Sequence record: MZ501107
Direction: 5' to 3' (one strand)
Length of the DNA: 43,627 bases
From: Escherichia phage TheodorHerzl
Below the pieces are notes generated by a model. It saw nothing but the letters and a program-made list of their open reading frames with translations, was not told where the DNA came from and searched no databases. Position numbers and translations under genes: made by a program. Within the stretch, counting starts at the first letter, position 1. Every line of letters starts with the position of its first letter. Of this stretch, positions 29,364 to 34,616 are shown one piece after another.

Positions 29364-29621
29364 CAATAAATCACAGTCGGCGATGTTGTCTATAACGCGA
29401 ACGTCAGCGCCGCGGCGGGCCATCCGCTCATGTTCACGTACCTGGTGCGGCTTCGGTTTTCCTCCGGGGCGCTTCACTTCGACGAACACTATTTTGCCGT
29501 TGATGATGATAATCAGATCGGGCGCACCTGCGCGCCCCTCCCATGCCAGTTTGCGGCAGAATCCGCCCACCTCTTTCACCCGTCGCATCAGGTGACTTTG
29601 AATCTTGCCTTCTGGAGTCAT
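29343..29621 (-). CDS. VRR-NUC domain nuclease
   Basis: 92 aa from the ATG with RBS AGGAAG, overlapping the polymerase stop (TAATG). GAPDLIIIINGKIVFVEVKRPGGKPKPHQVREHERMARRGADVRV is a PD-(D/E)XK VRR-NUC signature. Confidence 0.75.
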   Translation of the reverse strand: MTPEGKIQSHLMRRVKEVGGFCRKLAWEGRAGAPDLIIIINGKIVFVEVKRPGGKPKPHQVREHERMARRGADVRVIDNIADCDLLVAELVA

Positions 29622-31912
29622 TACTTCCTGTACCTGTACATGATGTCGCCCTCTGCGGCAAGTGGGAAGCCTTTCGCCCAAATCGGCAGGTCGCACATCA
29701 GCGCGCAAAGCTCCTCGGTCGTGTAGTCGTCGGTGTCCGGCACTTCTGTGATCAATTCGTCGTGTACTGACAGGACGATTTCATAGCCAGCAGCTTCAAC
29801 GCCCGGCATGGACCATGCGAGAATATCGCGGCACAACGCCTGTACGATGTTTTCCGTCAGTTTGCCGCCGTAGGTATACTGGAAGCCCCACTGGCGCGTA
29901 GTCTGATTCTCGCCCTGATATTTAATGCGTGTGCTGGTGCGCTTCTTGCCGGTGTCTTCGTCGATCTCGGTCGTGACAGACAGCGCGATGCCCGGATAGC
30001 TCATGATGCGCCCCGACGGCAACTCAATTTTCAACCACCAACCGGCGGCGTTCGGGTCGTCGCGCTCCTCGTCGAAGGTTGGGTCGTGCTTCGCCTTCGT
30101 GCGCACAATCTTAAGCGCTTTCCTACCGTCAGGGCGAACGTTCGCGCCAGCCCAGTATGCTTTGCCCGGATTGCGGATCGCACATAACACCGCGTCCTCA
30201 AGCTCGGCCCAAAAGGCTACCGTCTTCGGGTGAGCCTCGCGCCACATACGTTTGATTGCGTCACAAGTCAGCCATACGTTTTTCGGCAGTATGTATGTTG
30301 GACGCTCGTCTTTCTTGCCTGGCTTCGGCGGGCGTTTCGCTTCGTTAATGCGGGCGTACTCATAACCACGTTTCGCCGCCGCCCAAATGTGATCCGGGAA
30401 CGTGCCTTTCATCACGTCCGCCATAGTGTAAAGGTCGAGGCCCAGGTTTTTAGCGAACTGCAAGAACGCCGCGACGCCGCCACCATAGCCCAACCCCAAT
30501 TCGCACGCCTTACCGATCTGGCGTAAGTCCTTGCGGTTAGCTTTAATGTAGTCCGGGTCCAGGCCGAACATCTTACCGGCAGTCTCACAATAGATATCGC
30601 GACCGGCCTTAAACACCATTAGCGCGGTTTTCTCGCCAGCGATCCAGGCAAGGCCACGCCCTTCCACGTTGGAGTAGTCCGCTACGACAAACTTCTTACC
30701 CTTTGCAGGGATAATGCACCCGCGAACGGTCGAGGCCGTTAGCTTCGATATGTCATACGCCCAGTGTGCGGTCCCGCGTAACAGGGAGTTGATGCCGTTG
30801 GTGAGCATGTGCGACCGGACCCAAAACGAGACGTCGCTTTCACCCTCGCGGCGTTTAATCTTCCCTTCGTGGTCGTCGCTGTACTCGCCACGCGCCAGGT
30901 TTTGAGGTTGAAAGCCTTTACCGGCCCAGCGTAGCGTGCGCTTTGCCCCACCATACTGAAGACAACCACGGCGGCGACCATCTGCGGATAAGCCGTTAAC
31001 TAGCGGATTGTACTTAGTCGATGCCGTTGATGACGCACCGAGGCGCATTTCGATCAGCGCTTTGCCCTCGTCCGGGAAGTCCGGGTCTTCCAGTAGGTCG
31101 TTTAGCGTGGATTTCTGCGCGTTGTGTATCGTGAATGCTGGCGCAATATCACGCAGGATTGGCAGGAAGTCATTGCCGGTCAGCTTACCGCCAAACCGCT
31201 CCCAGGCTTCTTCCTTCAATTCTTCCTTATGCGCCTGCACCGCTTTGATCGCGGCGTTCGCCAGGTCAACGTCCACATAGAAGCCGCGGTCGTTGATCAA
31301 CTGGTCGATAAGCAGGATTTCATCTTCCTTCGGAGTATTACCCCAGTCCGGTATGCGCCAGTAGACTTCACGCATTGCGATAATATCCAGCGCGGCATAG
31401 CGCAGAAATTTGGCCCATTCTTCAGGGTGAGTCTCGCGAGTGTAGCGGCGTATTTTGTAGGTCTTAGGGGTAGGCTTACAGAATCTTTTAATCAGCGCCT
31501 TGCCTGCCTTATCCTTCGCGTGCTCTGCGTCAACGCCCAGCACCTGGCACTGCATATCGAGGCTACCGGGCAGCGCGTGGCGAAAGGCCATAATCATGGT
31601 GTCTTCGATCTGGCTTACCGGCAGGTCAATACCCCACTTCTCGCGAATAACCAGGCGGTCAAACAGGAGGCCGTTAGCCATCACTATTTTTGCTTTCTTG
31701 CGGGATACCTGACGGAGCGCCTTGCGCAGTTCACGCGGCATTGTTGGGGATTCAGTGGCATCCCATGTCTGCACGCGGCCTTCGTCGATGGCGTAGGTGC
31801 AAATCATAATCTCGGTGGTTGGGTGCTCTGCGTAGGCGTACGCCCCTACTTTCTTCAGGTCCACCCCGCTAAATGTCTCGGTGTCGAGAAACAGACGTTC
31901 GAAGTCTCTCAT
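29621..31912 (-). CDS. DNA polymerase, family A, with 3-prime-5-prime exonuclease domain
   Basis: 763 aa. Exo I motif FLDTETF, motif B-like RQIGKACELGLGYGGG, and motif C SVHDELITEV. Confidence 0.9.
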   Translation of the reverse strand: MRDFERLFLDTETFSGVDLKKVGAYAYAEHPTTEIMICTYAIDEGRVQTWDATESPTMPRELRKALRQVSRKKAKIVMANGLLFDRLVIREKWGIDLPVSQIEDTMIMAFRHALPGSLDMQCQVLGVDAEHAKDKAGKALIKRFCKPTPKTYKIRRYTRETHPEEWAKFLRYAALDIIAMREVYWRIPDWGNTPKEDEILLIDQLINDRGFYVDVDLANAAIKAVQAHKEELKEEAWERFGGKLTGNDFLPILRDIAPAFTIHNAQKSTLNDLLEDPDFPDEGKALIEMRLGASSTASTKYNPLVNGLSADGRRRGCLQYGGAKRTLRWAGKGFQPQNLARGEYSDDHEGKIKRREGESDVSFWVRSHMLTNGINSLLRGTAHWAYDISKLTASTVRGCIIPAKGKKFVVADYSNVEGRGLAWIAGEKTALMVFKAGRDIYCETAGKMFGLDPDYIKANRKDLRQIGKACELGLGYGGGVAAFLQFAKNLGLDLYTMADVMKGTFPDHIWAAAKRGYEYARINEAKRPPKPGKKDERPTYILPKNVWLTCDAIKRMWREAHPKTVAFWAELEDAVLCAIRNPGKAYWAGANVRPDGRKALKIVRTKAKHDPTFDEERDDPNAAGWWLKIELPSGRIMSYPGIALSVTTEIDEDTGKKRTSTRIKYQGENQTTRQWGFQYTYGGKLTENIVQALCRDILAWSMPGVEAAGYEIVLSVHDELITEVPDTDDYTTEELCALMCDLPIWAKGFPLAAEGDIMYRYRK

Positions 31913-32079
31913 TGCTTTATCCTCACCACGGCGTCAGCGCTGCCGATCATGGAGAAGATGCCGTCTGACAGGGCGATCTCTTCGCCGTTGTTGCGAATCT
32001 CGGCAACTGTGAAATATTCCCCCAGTAGCTTGGACCATACTTGCATTCCGACTTTTACTTCGCTGGCTTTAATACGCAT
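31909..32079 (-). CDS. small hypothetical protein (56 aa)
   Basis: ATG with RBS AGGA. Its stop overlaps the polymerase ATG (ATGA). Reads MRIKASEVKVGMQVWSKLLGEYFTVAEIRNNGEEIALSDGIFSMIGSADAVVRIKQ. Below the ORF-track cutoff. Confidence 0.35.
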   Translation of the reverse strand: MRIKASEVKVGMQVWSKLLGEYFTVAEIRNNGEEIALSDGIFSMIGSADAVVRIKQ

Positions 32080-32093
32080 TTTTCATTGTCCTA

Positions 32094-32120
32094 TTAAAAA
32101 GCCCGCATTAAGCGGGCTTG
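32094..32120 (-). terminator. intrinsic terminator (minus strand) downstream of the ssDNA-binding-like gene
   Basis: Minus strand CAAGCCCGC-TTAAT-GCGGGCTTTTTAA. Confidence 0.6.
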
Positions 32121-32137
32121 AATAGTGGTCTTTGCCC

Positions 32138-32860
32138 TTAACGGCGGCGACGTTTACGTGGCGCTTCGTCTTCCTCATCGTCGTCGTCATCGCGGCGCTT
32201 GGATTTCTTGGACTTGCGCGGCTTGTCATCTTCATCATCGTCATCACGACGTTTTGACTTTTTGGACTTGCGCGGTGCTTCGTCTTCGTCGTCGTTGTCC
32301 AGGTCTTCATCGGAGCAAGAAGACCCGCCACCTCCGAAGGCTTCGCCGTCTTCACGGAATCGCAGACCCAGCAAGCCAGCCCCGAGACCCTTGCCGTTGG
32401 TATTGTTCCATGCCCAAATATCAAGGGACACGTTGCAATAACAACCGGAGTAGATCTCCTGGCCTTCAATCTCGTCGCCGTCGATGGTCAGACCTTGTTC
32501 AGTCTGCTTCTCGCCGAGTGACGTTTGAATGATTGGTTGTTTGAACGATTTGGCGTTGATATACAACATGCCTTCGAATTCTTCGGTTACTTCATCGCGC
32601 TCGTCACCGTCGCGGACTGCGCATTCCTTAGAATCCTGGGCGTAGTGGCGGTCCATCCACTTATCGGCATTCTTCTCAGATTTCAGCTTGTCGGTGAGCA
32701 CTGCGCGTGCTGCCGCTTCCACTTTGTCCACCTGCGGATCTTCTTTATCAAGAAGAATCACGGCACGGTATGCCGGTTTTTGTCCATCCTGTTTAGGGGT
32801 ATCACGTTCCCAAATTTTCAGGAAACATACGCGCACATTTTTCAGGTTGACTTTAGCCAT
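32138..32860 (-). CDS. ssDNA-binding-like protein (DUF2815-like) with repetitive charged C-terminal tail
   Basis: 240 aa from ATG 32860 with RBS GAGGA. The N-terminus MAKVNLKNVRVCFLKIWE resembles the phage SSB-like DUF2815 family as I recall it. The C-terminus carries tandem DDDDEDD/PRKSKKSKRR repeats. Confidence 0.65.
   Translation of the reverse strand: MAKVNLKNVRVCFLKIWERDTPKQDGQKPAYRAVILLDKEDPQVDKVEAAARAVLTDKLKSEKNADKWMDRHYAQDSKECAVRDGDERDEVTEEFEGMLYINAKSFKQPIIQTSLGEKQTEQGLTIDGDEIEGQEIYSGCYCNVSLDIWAWNNTNGKGLGAGLLGLRFREDGEAFGGGGSSCSDEDLDNDDEDEAPRKSKKSKRRDDDDEDDKPRKSKKSKRRDDDDDEEDEAPRKRRRR
32160..32300 (-). repeat. in-frame tandem DNA repeat (~63-bp unit, about 2.5 copies) encoding alternating basic/acidic blocks
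   Basis: The segment TTGGATTTCTTGGACTTGCGCGG...TCATCTTCATCATCGTCATCA recurs as TTGACTTTTTGGACTTGCGCGG...TCGTCTTCGTCGTCG on the plus strand. Coordinates approximate. Confidence 0.7.
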
Positions 32861-32950
32861 TTTCCAATTCCTCATTTTCACATGTATCGGGGTTATTGGA
32901 AGCCACCCCGTTCGGCTTGGTTGCCAATTTACTTGGTTGCGCCTGAGCGG

Positions 32951-33193
32951 TCAAGCATTTTCATTAAAAAGATTTCTGGTCACGTAGTTGGTAGCGTTCT
33001 CGATCCAGCTTAACGGCGGGCGGTTGATGTTCTTCTCCACCCAATCGGCGGCAGCTTCGCTATAGCCGTCATCCAACCAGCTGGTCTGATGTCGAATCAT
33101 CCACGCCACCATTAACACGCCTTGCACACAATGCAGGATAAAGCCCAGCGCGCCGAGCAAAAACATCAATAAGATTGCGAATACTTTATTCAT
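32951..33193 (-). CDS. small membrane protein
   Basis: 80 aa with an N-terminal hydrophobic helix FAILLMFLLGALGFILHCVQGVLMVAWMI. Confidence 0.5.
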   Translation of the reverse strand: MNKVFAILLMFLLGALGFILHCVQGVLMVAWMIRHQTSWLDDGYSEAAADWVEKNINRPPLSWIENATNYVTRNLFNENA

Positions 33194-34616
33194 TGCTTAA
33201 GTCCTCGTCAGTAGCTTCTGACCACGCAGGGCGCGGGTCGTCGATTGGTGCTAATACCGGTTTTGCCGGTGCGCGCGTGATTTTATCACACAGCTTCGCC
33301 CACACTTTCGGTTTCTCATCCTTCAATACCTTCTCGGCATCAGTAGGGCTGAGCAATGTTTCTTTGTACATCACATCGCGCTTGATCCGGGCCTTCGTGA
33401 AGATTTCAATCACTTCGCTTTCGTCTGCCCACTTGCGAATCCCTTCCTTACCGGCAACCATCTTGAGGCCCAGCGATTCGCCATCGCCCGCCATAACCGC
33501 TTTGAATACCGCGGACTCGATAGCCTTGATGTGCTGGCGCATTGCGTCTAAACCTTCATACGCCTTGCGCAGTTCCGCGGCAGTCATAGCGCCGGAGGCC
33601 GCTTCTTTCTTGCCACGCTTCGCACGTCGTGCCGCTTTGCGGGCTTCGCGGGCCATATTGCGGTCATGATTGGCGCATTCTTCCTCTGTCGCAATACTCA
33701 CGTCGTCGCCCAGGTCTTCGTCTGTTGCCGTTGGTGGGGTCATCGTGTCGATTGCAGCCTTAGCGCGGGCGCTACACTGATCCGCAAATCTGCACCACTG
33801 ACACGCATCAACGCTCGGTCGGAAGTCGGCGCGGGTGAGTCCCTTTTTGCCTCTGGCGTACGCTTCCAGGGCGGCGATAGCACGCTTGGACGCAAACTTA
33901 GCGAATATCTCCAGGGCTTCTACCGAAATATCCCACTCCGACGCCCCACCGCAATACGGCTGGAAGATAACCAGGCGCACGGTCGTAATGTCGTACATAG
34001 TTTTCAGCTTGCGCAGCAGGCCGAGCGCGTACAACATAAGCTGTTTGTTTTCTTTCGCCTCGACCTTATGCCGCCCCGTCTTCAGGTCGCCAACAATCAG
34101 CATGTACGTGCCGTCGGTCTTCTTCATGACCATGACCATATCCGCAGTGCCGAACGTCTTAACCCGGTTGCCGTCGATCTCGAAGCCAGAGTGTAGGACG
34201 CGGGTTAGGTCGGCGCGCATCTCAAGCTGGACAAACTCCGCCACTTCGAGGAGCGGTCGCCAGTGGTCGATGTACGCGTCGCACTGTTTCACCATGTCGT
34301 CGTTGACCAGTACGCCGCCTTTCGGTGCTTTCGGGTGCGCCTTTACCGGCCCCTTACCTTCGTTCTCGACGTAACACCCTTTGTACGTCTTAGCGGTTAT
34401 CAGCTTCTCACCGGCAATGATGCGGTTGAGTACGACTTCAGATACGGTGTGCATACTCGTACCGTTAATCGCCGCTTGCCCGGATTCGTTCGGGATATCT
34501 TTTTCCACCACCAGGGCGGCGGGGCAACCCATCCATTTTTTAGCACCGGATGGCCCGAGTAATGAGTGTTCCGTGTTGCTACCGGATTGCGTTTTACGTT
34601 TTGGTTTAATCGCCAT
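33186..34616 (-). CDS. DUF2800-like PD-(D/E)XK exonuclease (Cas4/RecB-like) with C-terminal extension
   Basis: 476 aa. N-terminal LLGPSGAKKWMGCPA, and a Cys cluster CQWCRFADQC typical of Fe-S Cas4-like nucleases. Frequently paired with the DUF2815 protein. Confidence 0.7.
   Translation of the reverse strand: MAIKPKRKTQSGSNTEHSLLGPSGAKKWMGCPAALVVEKDIPNESGQAAINGTSMHTVSEVVLNRIIAGEKLITAKTYKGCYVENEGKGPVKAHPKAPKGGVLVNDDMVKQCDAYIDHWRPLLEVAEFVQLEMRADLTRVLHSGFEIDGNRVKTFGTADMVMVMKKTDGTYMLIVGDLKTGRHKVEAKENKQLMLYALGLLRKLKTMYDITTVRLVIFQPYCGGASEWDISVEALEIFAKFASKRAIAALEAYARGKKGLTRADFRPSVDACQWCRFADQCSARAKAAIDTMTPPTATDEDLGDDVSIATEEECANHDRNMAREARKAARRAKRGKKEAASGAMTAAELRKAYEGLDAMRQHIKAIESAVFKAVMAGDGESLGLKMVAGKEGIRKWADESEVIEIFTKARIKRDVMYKETLLSPTDAEKVLKDEKPKVWAKLCDKITRAPAKPVLAPIDDPRPAWSEATDEDLSNE

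Follow-up and report, generated by a model that had tools for sequence, protein, structure and literature searches.

The stretch of DNA analysed here (43,627 nucleotides (nt), hereafter the window) is sequence record MZ501107 of Escherichia phage TheodorHerzl, which is Bas14 of the BASEL collection and belongs to the genus Dhillonvirus. [quoted passage not shown] Among SSB C-terminal tails, this alternating architecture is a conserved variant that seems not to have been described so far, and it is neither an oddity of one genome nor of recent date.

The SSB gene and its product

In the program-made list of open reading frames (ORFs), the gene appears as a minus-strand ORF at 32138..32881, limited upstream by a GTG at 32881. 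Its start is probably the ATG at 32860 (MAKVNL), since a Shine-Dalgarno sequence (GAGGAA) is located 9 nt upstream, and both the annotation of the related phage SECphi4 and the gene callers agree on this codon. A 245-residue version of the protein is exactly QXV85050.1 from Escherichia phage TheodorHerzl, described as a "putative single-stranded DNA binding protein". The gene is already known and annotated, and an orthologue has been studied experimentally.

The product is a T7 gp2.5/Enc34-type protein. Residues 10-200 match Pfam PF10991 (Enc34_ssDNA-bd, formerly DUF2815) with 110.1 bits against a cutoff of 26, and the protein matches PHROG 112 ("Gp2.5-like ssDNA binding and annealing protein") at 4e-57, as well as the solved DUF2815 structures and Enc34 ORF6 by sequence. 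An AlphaFold2 model built on 49 homologues reaches a predicted local distance difference test (pLDDT) of 89-97 over residues 1-172, and in Foldseek it retrieves 4klk (3.5e-12), 5odl (2e-11), 5odj (in the range 1e-10 to 1e-12), and T7 gp2.5 (1je5, 1e-6). Pfam, PHROG and Foldseek thus concur with a preliminary description of the locus, made from the sequence alone, in which the product had been called SSB-like.

The residues that contact ssDNA in the Enc34 protein are Y30, Y37, K46, R112, W150, N154, and Y156 (PMC5686142). In a phmmer alignment to 5ODJ, four of these positions are kept in the window SSB (W150 as W149, N154 as N153, R112 as K104, and Y30 as F13), while the other three are changed (Y37 to T21, K46 to A30, next to K28, and Y156 to N155, next to W151). 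The contacts described as conserved across T7-type SSBs (W150, N154, and R112; PMC5686142) all have counterparts among the former. Preferential binding to ssDNA is predicted for the window SSB on indirect grounds, namely that the SECphi4 orthologue triggers Retron-Eco8 like T7 gp2.5 and is stated to bind the retron msdDNA.

Architecture of the C-terminal tail

The translation of the gene ends in ...DEDLDNDDEDEAPRKSKKSKRRDDDDEDDKPRKSKKSKRRDDDDDEEDEAPRKRRRR*, in exact agreement with the tail peptide of the preliminary description. The 63 residues of the tail can be laid out as GGSSCS-DEDLDNDDEDEA / PRKSKKSKRR-DDDDEDDK / PRKSKKSKRR-DDDDDEEDEA / PRKRRRR, where a Gly/Ser hinge and a proximal acidic block are followed by units A and B and by a terminal basic block (Table 1). 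One 14-residue peptide is present twice in identical form, and three basic blocks of 6-7 Lys/Arg residues each break up the acidic run. In total, the tail holds 21 Lys/Arg and 25 Asp/Glu residues, with a net charge of -4. When compared with a canonical acidic SSB tail, it is disordered and net acidic, and it lacks both an uninterrupted acidic run and a hydrophobic or aromatic C-terminal residue.

At the DNA level, Tandem Repeats Finder reports a repeat at 32170-32295 with a period of 54, 2.3 copies, 73% matches, and a score of 147, and a second repeat search recovered three copies, 60 and 54 nt apart, with 74-81% DNA identity. The two and a half copies counted in the preliminary description are borne out, whereas its unit of ~63 bp has to be replaced by periods of 54 and 60 bp. 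The tandem duplication that it proposed is real, although its copies have diverged and are not near-identical.

The AlphaFold2 model predicts the tail to be disordered, with a pLDDT of 34-56 and no secondary structure over residues 176-240; disorder prediction was one of the checks put forward in the preliminary description. The segregation of charges along the tail is 0.418, versus 0.089 +/- 0.039 in shuffles of the same tail, none of which (0/2000) reaches the observed value. Such a marked separation of positive and negative charges within a stretch predicted to be disordered is the sequence signature of a blocky polyampholyte.

Two other readings of the region were rejected. A single alpha-helix (ER/K) domain is ruled out by the Pro residues at the acid-to-basic junctions, the Asp-rich nature of the acidic blocks, and the absence of any AlphaFold2 helix in residues 187-240. 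ORFs in other frames and on the plus strand overlap the tail because the region is GA-rich and of low complexity, but the ratio of non-synonymous to synonymous polymorphism (pN/pS) backs the annotated frame.

Table 1. Features of the SSB locus and its surroundings in the window.
Feature	Position	Strand	Details and evidence
SSB gene	32138..32860	-	240 aa + stop; Pfam, PHROG, exact GenBank protein
OB-fold (oligonucleotide/oligosaccharide-binding fold) ssDNA-binding core, residues 1-177	32330..32860	-	AlphaFold2, Foldseek, pN/pS
Gly/Ser hinge and proximal acidic block GGSSCSDEDLDNDDEDEA, residues 178-195	32276..32329	-	Translation, alignment
Unit A, PRKSKKSKRR + DDDDEDDK, 54 bp	32222..32275	-	Translation, codon comparison
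Unit B, PRKSKKSKRR + DDDDDEEDEA, 60 bp	32162..32221	-	Translation, codon comparison
Terminal basic block PRKRRRR	32141..32161	-	Stop codon at 32138-32140
Junction of 60-bp in-frame deletion, microhomology GAAGA	32169..32173	-	Removed unit C (PRKRRKPRDDEDEDDDEDEA); alignment with Oekolampad, SECphi4, BF9
Hairpin + U-run, probable intrinsic terminator	32096..32119	-	RNA fold, related annotations
DUF2800 PD-(D/E)XK exonuclease, upstream module partner	33186..34616	-	Pfam PF10926 1.5e-66, PF12705
Family A DNA polymerase (763 aa), downstream module partner	29621..31912	-	Pfam PF00476, PHROG 17 at 1.9e-130

Distribution of tail types in the family

About 150 Dhillonvirus records match the locus with 85-97% identity, and all 21 relatives that were fetched, which had been sequenced independently, show the alternating layout. 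Homologous tails were collected from a search of 5.8 billion proteins, and the 111 that could be scored all alternate, with layouts ranging from -+- to -+-+-+-+-+; in 110 of them, charge segregation goes beyond that of 99% of shuffles. The acid-to-basic junctions of these tails nearly always carry a Pro residue, in the form xP(K/R) (238 of 253 junctions). The C-terminal residue, scored in 114 homologues, is basic in 53, acidic in 40, and hydrophobic in 2. In the homologue alignment, D186, L187, and column 189 are at least 90% conserved, the Asp-Leu pair of the proximal block being nearly invariant, and this block aligns with the DDFEDL-type start of the plain acidic tails found elsewhere in the family.

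The textbook SSB tail is purely acidic and carries a hydrophobic tip, and the preliminary description was right to regard the tail of the window SSB as atypical in that sense. Among its relatives, however, this is a common and conserved tail, an outcome that the preliminary description itself had named as one that would count against its view. A survey of the literature on DUF2815 and on alternating or positively charged SSB tails yielded no description of an alternating tail.

Beyond the genus, the locus is matched by ~500 more distant phage records with 37-57% core identity, two representatives of which were checked. These are Salmonella phage Jersey and a Kagunavirus-like phage (drawn from several hundred records with 37-41% core identity), and both hold a minimal form, ...DDLEDDEEDEA-PRRERRRR, so that an acid-A-P-R...RRRR ending is common to them and to the window. 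Serratia phages Smarc3 and Scapp present three to four basic blocks, while the tail of Acinetobacter phage 4316 is plain acidic and terminates in DPLFA. Cultured phages therefore form a gradation, from the plain tail of 4316, through the acidic block plus PRRERRRR of Jersey and the Kagunavirus-like phage, to the two to four basic blocks of Dhillonvirus, Smarc3, and Scapp.

An exhaustive search with the core only gathered 1991 family clusters at 50% identity, and tails were read in the 146 nearest representatives. About 135 of them (~90%) have a plain acidic tail with a median of ~25 residues, mostly ending in F, I, L, A, or V, and 11-14 have basic blocks. The alternating tails are 2.6 times longer than the plain ones (medians of 66 and 25 residues), and both classes have the same median net charge of -8; net tail charge is thus held at the family norm of about -8, with -4 in the window. 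In a rough neighbour-joining tree, the window falls in one clade made up entirely of alternating tails, and a few other alternating tails are scattered outside it (P0113-P0115, P0117, P0171/P0178, P0172, P0190, and Scapp); the tree is crude, and some of these scattered proteins entered the search through tail words. Among all homologues found, P0115 is the only one to pair alternating blocks with a DDDDDIPF tip.

Several members of this collection stand out on their own. The distant DUF2815 protein P0172 has a 166-residue tail rich in Arg, Asp, Ser, and Gly (GSDRDRGRDR...), and another distant one, P0190, holds five tandem DDDDD-RGSRSRSR units. A further entry, P0116, is labelled as GH714_044142 from Hevea brasiliensis (rubber tree), and combines a DUF2800 Pfam match with a tail of the phage SSB type (...EAPRKSKRRPVEDEAPRRKRRNYEDDEE); it most likely represents phage or bacterial contamination of the plant genome assembly.

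Age and maintenance of the repeat

As the preliminary description had pointed out, a repeat of this kind could arise from collapsed or expanded reads. The identical SSB protein is, however, found on six Logan contigs as well as in GenBank, and the contig from SRR32566266 shows 0 mismatches in 3723 nt when compared with positions 30638-34360 of the window. The phages SECphi4 and BF9, from other laboratories, share the same layout of unit A, unit B, and terminal block. An assembly artefact is, therefore, discarded, given an independent Sequence Read Archive assembly that is identical across the locus over 3.7 kb and 21 independently sequenced relatives with the same architecture.

Tandem direct repeats within a replication gene might also act as DNA or RNA, for instance as iterons of an origin embedded in the gene, as in the lambda ori. 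In such a case, the nucleotide sequence would be expected to be kept better than the peptide, and the reverse is observed, since DNA identity between the copies is 74-81% and the peptide is conserved at 100%, with differences that are all synonymous. Searches for Rfam families, tRNAs, and inverted repeats over the repeat found none. We reject an element acting at the DNA or RNA level, which, like an artefact, is extremely improbable as an explanation of the repeat.

Over their first 14 codons, units A and B differ by eight synonymous and no non-synonymous changes, and these eight account for approximately all the synonymous sites available past the first four codons, so that synonymous divergence is saturated. 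The two units can be told apart by their codon signatures (unit A, TCA AAA CGT CGT; unit B, TCC AAG CGC CGC), which recur at every Dhillonvirus locus examined. Because this saturated divergence is common to all those loci, the A/B duplication is old and predates the genus, and the peptide has not changed since. The recent expansion contemplated in the preliminary description is thereby ruled out; moreover, as described below, the form found in the window has undergone a contraction.

The selective regime was estimated from 18 Dhillonvirus genes. The pN/pS is 0.059 for the OB core, 0.16 for the proximal acidic block, 0.045 for unit A, and 0.17 for unit B, and the terminal PRKRRRR is invariant at the protein level in all 18 genes (pN 0, pS 0.067). 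To judge from these values, the tail modules are under purifying selection at the protein level.

Unit turnover and contraction in the window

Most relatives hold a third unit, C, with the sequence PRKRRKPR-DDEDEDDDEDEA, and the corresponding protein cluster at 90% identity comprises 537 members with a 261-residue representative. With one unit fewer than most relatives, the window is a contraction. Compared with its closest relative, Oekolampad, it lacks exactly 60 nt, and its A+B form derives from the common A+B+C form by deletion of 60 bp. Unit C has been lost at three different junctions in SECphi4, BF9, and the window, and the loss in SECphi4 was independent because its junction differs.

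Other loci illustrate the same turnover: L012 holds A+C, L010 and L011 hold B+C, EP23 holds only A, and L005 carries a B/C fusion. Altogether, the forms A, A+B, A+C, B+C, and A+B+C are found within Dhillonvirus, and none of them lacks the proximal acidic block or the terminal PRKRRRR. The locus is spanned in full by 32 GenBank records; in 31 of these, the difference in length to the window is divisible by 3 and ranges between -48 and +63 nt, and about two thirds are longer by 51 to 63 nt. Unit number thus changes through in-frame, microhomology-mediated loss or gain, as sequence comparison shows.

Frameshifted tails were found in three database sequences, of which two are Dhillonvirus genomes in GenBank and the third is a Logan contig. 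The entries are L019 (MZ234014.1, vB_EcoS-101114B2; 641-1456), P0004 (vB_EcoS-22664B1), and P0008, and their tails switch to a different frame (..MTKTRTTTTKTKHHVNVAAVKGKAHYSSPLIAGFLLGQ) that stays open across the terminator hairpin described below. In vB_EcoS-101114B2, the two PRKAKKSKRR units are exact DNA copies. Either the repeat was sequenced or assembled wrongly in these entries, or they represent viable mutants of the tail.

The contig L014 (IMGVR_UViG_3300045988_003101) ends within the SSB tail, where it reads ...RRDDAVSYTHLRAHE, a sequence that resembles the translation of a Nextera adapter. This suggests that the assembly broke at the repeat and retained the adapter.

It could be argued that the tail is a neutral, slippage-prone appendage of low complexity, in which only the proximal acidic block matters. 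The free variation in unit number, the three frameshifted tails, and a composition that leaves all six frames open across the region would agree with this idea. We nevertheless consider it very unlikely, given that pN/pS in the units is low like that of the core and the terminus is invariant, that the A and B peptides remain identical in spite of saturated synonymous divergence, that length variants are nearly always in frame, and that the junction Pro and the net charge are kept across homologues that are 40-60% divergent.

Gene neighbourhood and flanking signals

A duf2800-gp2.5-polA gene module has been described (PMC8093625), and the window has the order duf2800-SSB-polA, with all the genes on the minus strand. 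A hairpin, AAGCCCGC-UUAAU-GCGGGCUU, followed by a U-run lies 18 nt past the SSB stop codon, with a folding energy of -19.8 kcal/mol and a z of -4.3, and none of 200 shuffles is as stable. It was not called by a simple terminator scan but is seen by RNA folding, and related records annotate a terminator beneath the locus match. This hairpin, a probable intrinsic terminator or attenuator, separates the SSB gene from the 56-residue ORF and polA that follow.

Throughout the genus, the 21 nt that encode PRKRRRR show unusually low synonymous diversity (pS of 0.067 versus about 0.22-0.42 in the rest of the gene). This may point to a further constraint, one acting on the nucleotide sequence close to the SSB stop codon and the terminator.

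The 56-residue ORF (31909-32079, minus strand) is identical to the "56aa protein of unknown function" of SECphi4 and matches PHROG 10102, also of unknown function. The defence-escape mutants tabulated by Stokar-Avihail et al. (Table S2) include a frameshift, E21fs, in the SECphi4 gene. Upstream of the SSB gene, a sigma-70-like promoter match is found at 32926-32954 (minus strand), with TTGACC and TAAATT separated by a 17-nt spacer. In SECphi4, an intergenic point mutation 45 nt before the SSB start is sufficient for escape from Retron-Eco8.

Possible function of the alternating tail

We favour, with moderate confidence, the interpretation that the tail corresponds to the canonical acidic tail of SSBs in a longer, disordered form, to which the basic blocks would add electrostatic self-association. 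According to this model, in one large lineage of enterobacterial siphophages, a short acidic tail would have been lengthened by tandem modules, each formed by an x-Pro-(Arg/Lys/Ser) block and an Asp/Glu block. The net-acidic tail would occupy the DNA-binding cleft of its own protein when the SSB is off DNA, enforce selectivity for ssDNA over double-stranded DNA (dsDNA), and dock the replisome partners. It probably keeps these T7-type roles, because both the net charge of the family and the proximal acidic D-L motif are preserved. The basic blocks, in turn, would bind to acidic blocks both in cis and in adjacent SSB molecules, which might give rise to a salt-sensitive multivalent self-association resulting in cooperative coating and, possibly, condensates. 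The number of units would then tune the valency of this self-association. The electrostatic scheme may be likened, as a general analogy, to that formed by the LAST motif and the acidic domain of T4 gp32.

Several points weigh against this interpretation. Its functional part derives from homology and from the physics of charged chains. A hydrophobic or aromatic residue at the C-terminus, which is important in T7 gp2.5 and E. coli SSB, is missing from the tail of the window SSB, and with an RRRR end, the contacts with partners may work differently. Since one to three internal units are all tolerated, valency cannot be critical, and the frameshifted tails, if real, would mean that most of the tail is dispensable in the laboratory. 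Finally, the Retron-Eco8 data are uninformative about the tail, because the escape mutations obtained in SECphi4 and SECphi18 are located in the core (T56P) or in the promoter, and none of them in the tail.

The basic blocks could alternatively constitute an auxiliary element for nucleic-acid binding or strand annealing, where SPKK-like minor-groove binders neutralise the backbone and serve to anneal strands or to hold dsDNA together with the DUF2800 exonuclease. PHROG 112 and many GenBank records use the name "ssDNA binding and annealing protein", the conserved duf2800-gp2.5-polA module is devoid of a separate recombinase, and the x-P-R-K-S-K-K sequence resembles SPKK, with some relatives literally reading S-P-R-K. 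In addition, the Enc34 SSB deprived of its tail gains dsDNA binding, which is unmasked by the deletion (PMC5686142), and this implies that tail chemistry controls DNA selectivity. However, every basic block is flanked by an acidic block of equal or larger size, and the net charge is negative and at the value of the plain tails. Because of these acidic flanks and this net charge, neutralisation within the tail fits better than free binding to DNA, and we regard an annealing element as unlikely.

Strong charge segregation has phase separation or nucleic-acid condensation, both suggested in the preliminary description, as a possible consequence. Put as an alternative, the tail would be a condensate-forming polyampholyte, and self-coacervation of the SSB would concentrate replication proteins at the sites of phage replication. 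The very high segregation kept in 110 of 111 homologues and the predicted disorder are in line with this proposal, and it is the disordered linker of E. coli SSB that lets this protein phase-separate (PMC7584906). On the other hand, EP23, with a single unit, and the minimal form of Jersey are viable, so that high valency is not required, and the net charge of the tail is not zero. Altogether, condensate formation as the explanation of the tail seems distinctly improbable.

A related idea, which we also find doubtful, is that the tail forms a polyampholyte "zipper" with a co-adapted acidic OB core, evolved more than once, that replaces the logic of acidic tail plus hydrophobic tip. The basic blocks would clasp the acidic blocks or the core of a neighbouring molecule, leading to cooperative coating of ssDNA or to a replication condensate, and the number of units would be an evolvable dial of valency. 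It is hinted at by the similar tails on distant, scattered DUF2815 cores, and by the charge of the main-clade cores (about -5 versus +2).

With regard to core charge, the OB core has a net charge of -8 in the window, with medians of -5 in the main clade and +2 in the plain-tail cores compared (P0118-P0265). The association with tail type is highly significant when sequences are treated as independent, and it is inconsistent among the alternating-tail proteins outside the main clade. The pattern is mostly the effect of a single clade, and it should be taken as a lead rather than as evidence.

Whichever mechanism applies, replisomes rely on the C-terminal tails of SSBs for control and docking, and the rule of an acidic tail with a hydrophobic tip does not hold for a large and well-sampled group of siphophages from E. 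coli, Salmonella, and Serratia. This group includes phages in wide laboratory use (Bas14 and Bas18 of the BASEL collection, and SECphi4) and the SSB that triggers Retron-Eco8. Their tails present basic stripes and often a poly-Arg end, with an ordinary net charge. Phages that are otherwise near-identical carry 0, 1, 2, or 3 internal units, a natural series that provides a ready experiment on how charge patterning and valency of a disordered tail affect the behaviour of an SSB. If the tail were merely tolerated, there would still be a lesson for annotation and assembly, as the locus is a hotspot of in-frame length polymorphism with frameshifted database entries.

Comparison with known SSBs

The closest known systems are the Enc34 ORF6/DUF2815 SSBs (5ODJ, 5ODL, 4KLK, and 4JG2), which share with the window SSB the Pfam family, the OB-fold variant, the duf2800-SSB-polA module, and a disordered C-terminal tail past an FGG hinge. 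Unlike the 63-residue tail of the window, with its basic blocks and RRRR end, their tail is plain acidic, of ~25 residues, and usually has a hydrophobic end. The cores differ too, the window core being clearly more acidic than the typical plain-tail core (see above).

T7 gp2.5 has a homologous fold and a net-acidic disordered tail after an FGGG hinge, and this tail is a competitor of ssDNA that also makes contact with the polymerase and the helicase (PMC10359462). The protein is not included in PF10991 according to Pfam, so that its relation to the window SSB is visible only in structure. Its own tail, where an acidic stretch is followed by SAKASKPR and again by acidic residues, has the look of a rudimentary one-unit tail with the same K-P-R junction. 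However, its only basic patch is weak, its terminal acidic run is long, and its C-terminal Phe (F232) is essential, in contrast to the three strong basic blocks and the lack of an aromatic terminus in the window.

The SSB of SECphi4 (QJI52528.1) is an orthologue with a near-identical core and the same layout of units A, B, and terminal block, and it differs in the junction at which unit C was lost. It triggers Retron-Eco8, as does T7 gp2.5, whose C-tail is dispensable for this activation. A later paper reported that the SECphi4 SSB binds the retron msdDNA, and in the structural work the flexible C-terminal residues were left out of the model.

E. coli SSB resembles the window SSB in that a disordered tail governs its cooperativity and condensation. 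Its linker, however, is rich in Gly, Gln, and Pro and nearly uncharged, and it ends in a DDDIPF tip. T4 gp32 has an unrelated fold and combines a basic N-terminal LAST motif (a patch of Lys, Arg, Ser, and Thr) with an acidic C-terminal domain, both involved in electrostatic cooperativity and partner binding; its charged elements are thus located at opposite ends of the protein and not in tandem repeats. Outside the SSBs, the N-terminus of nucleolin and Nopp140 show an alternation of acidic and Lys-rich stretches, with Pro opening the basic ones (TPxKK-like), although the analogy is one of pattern only, without homology and with a different kingdom and different partners.

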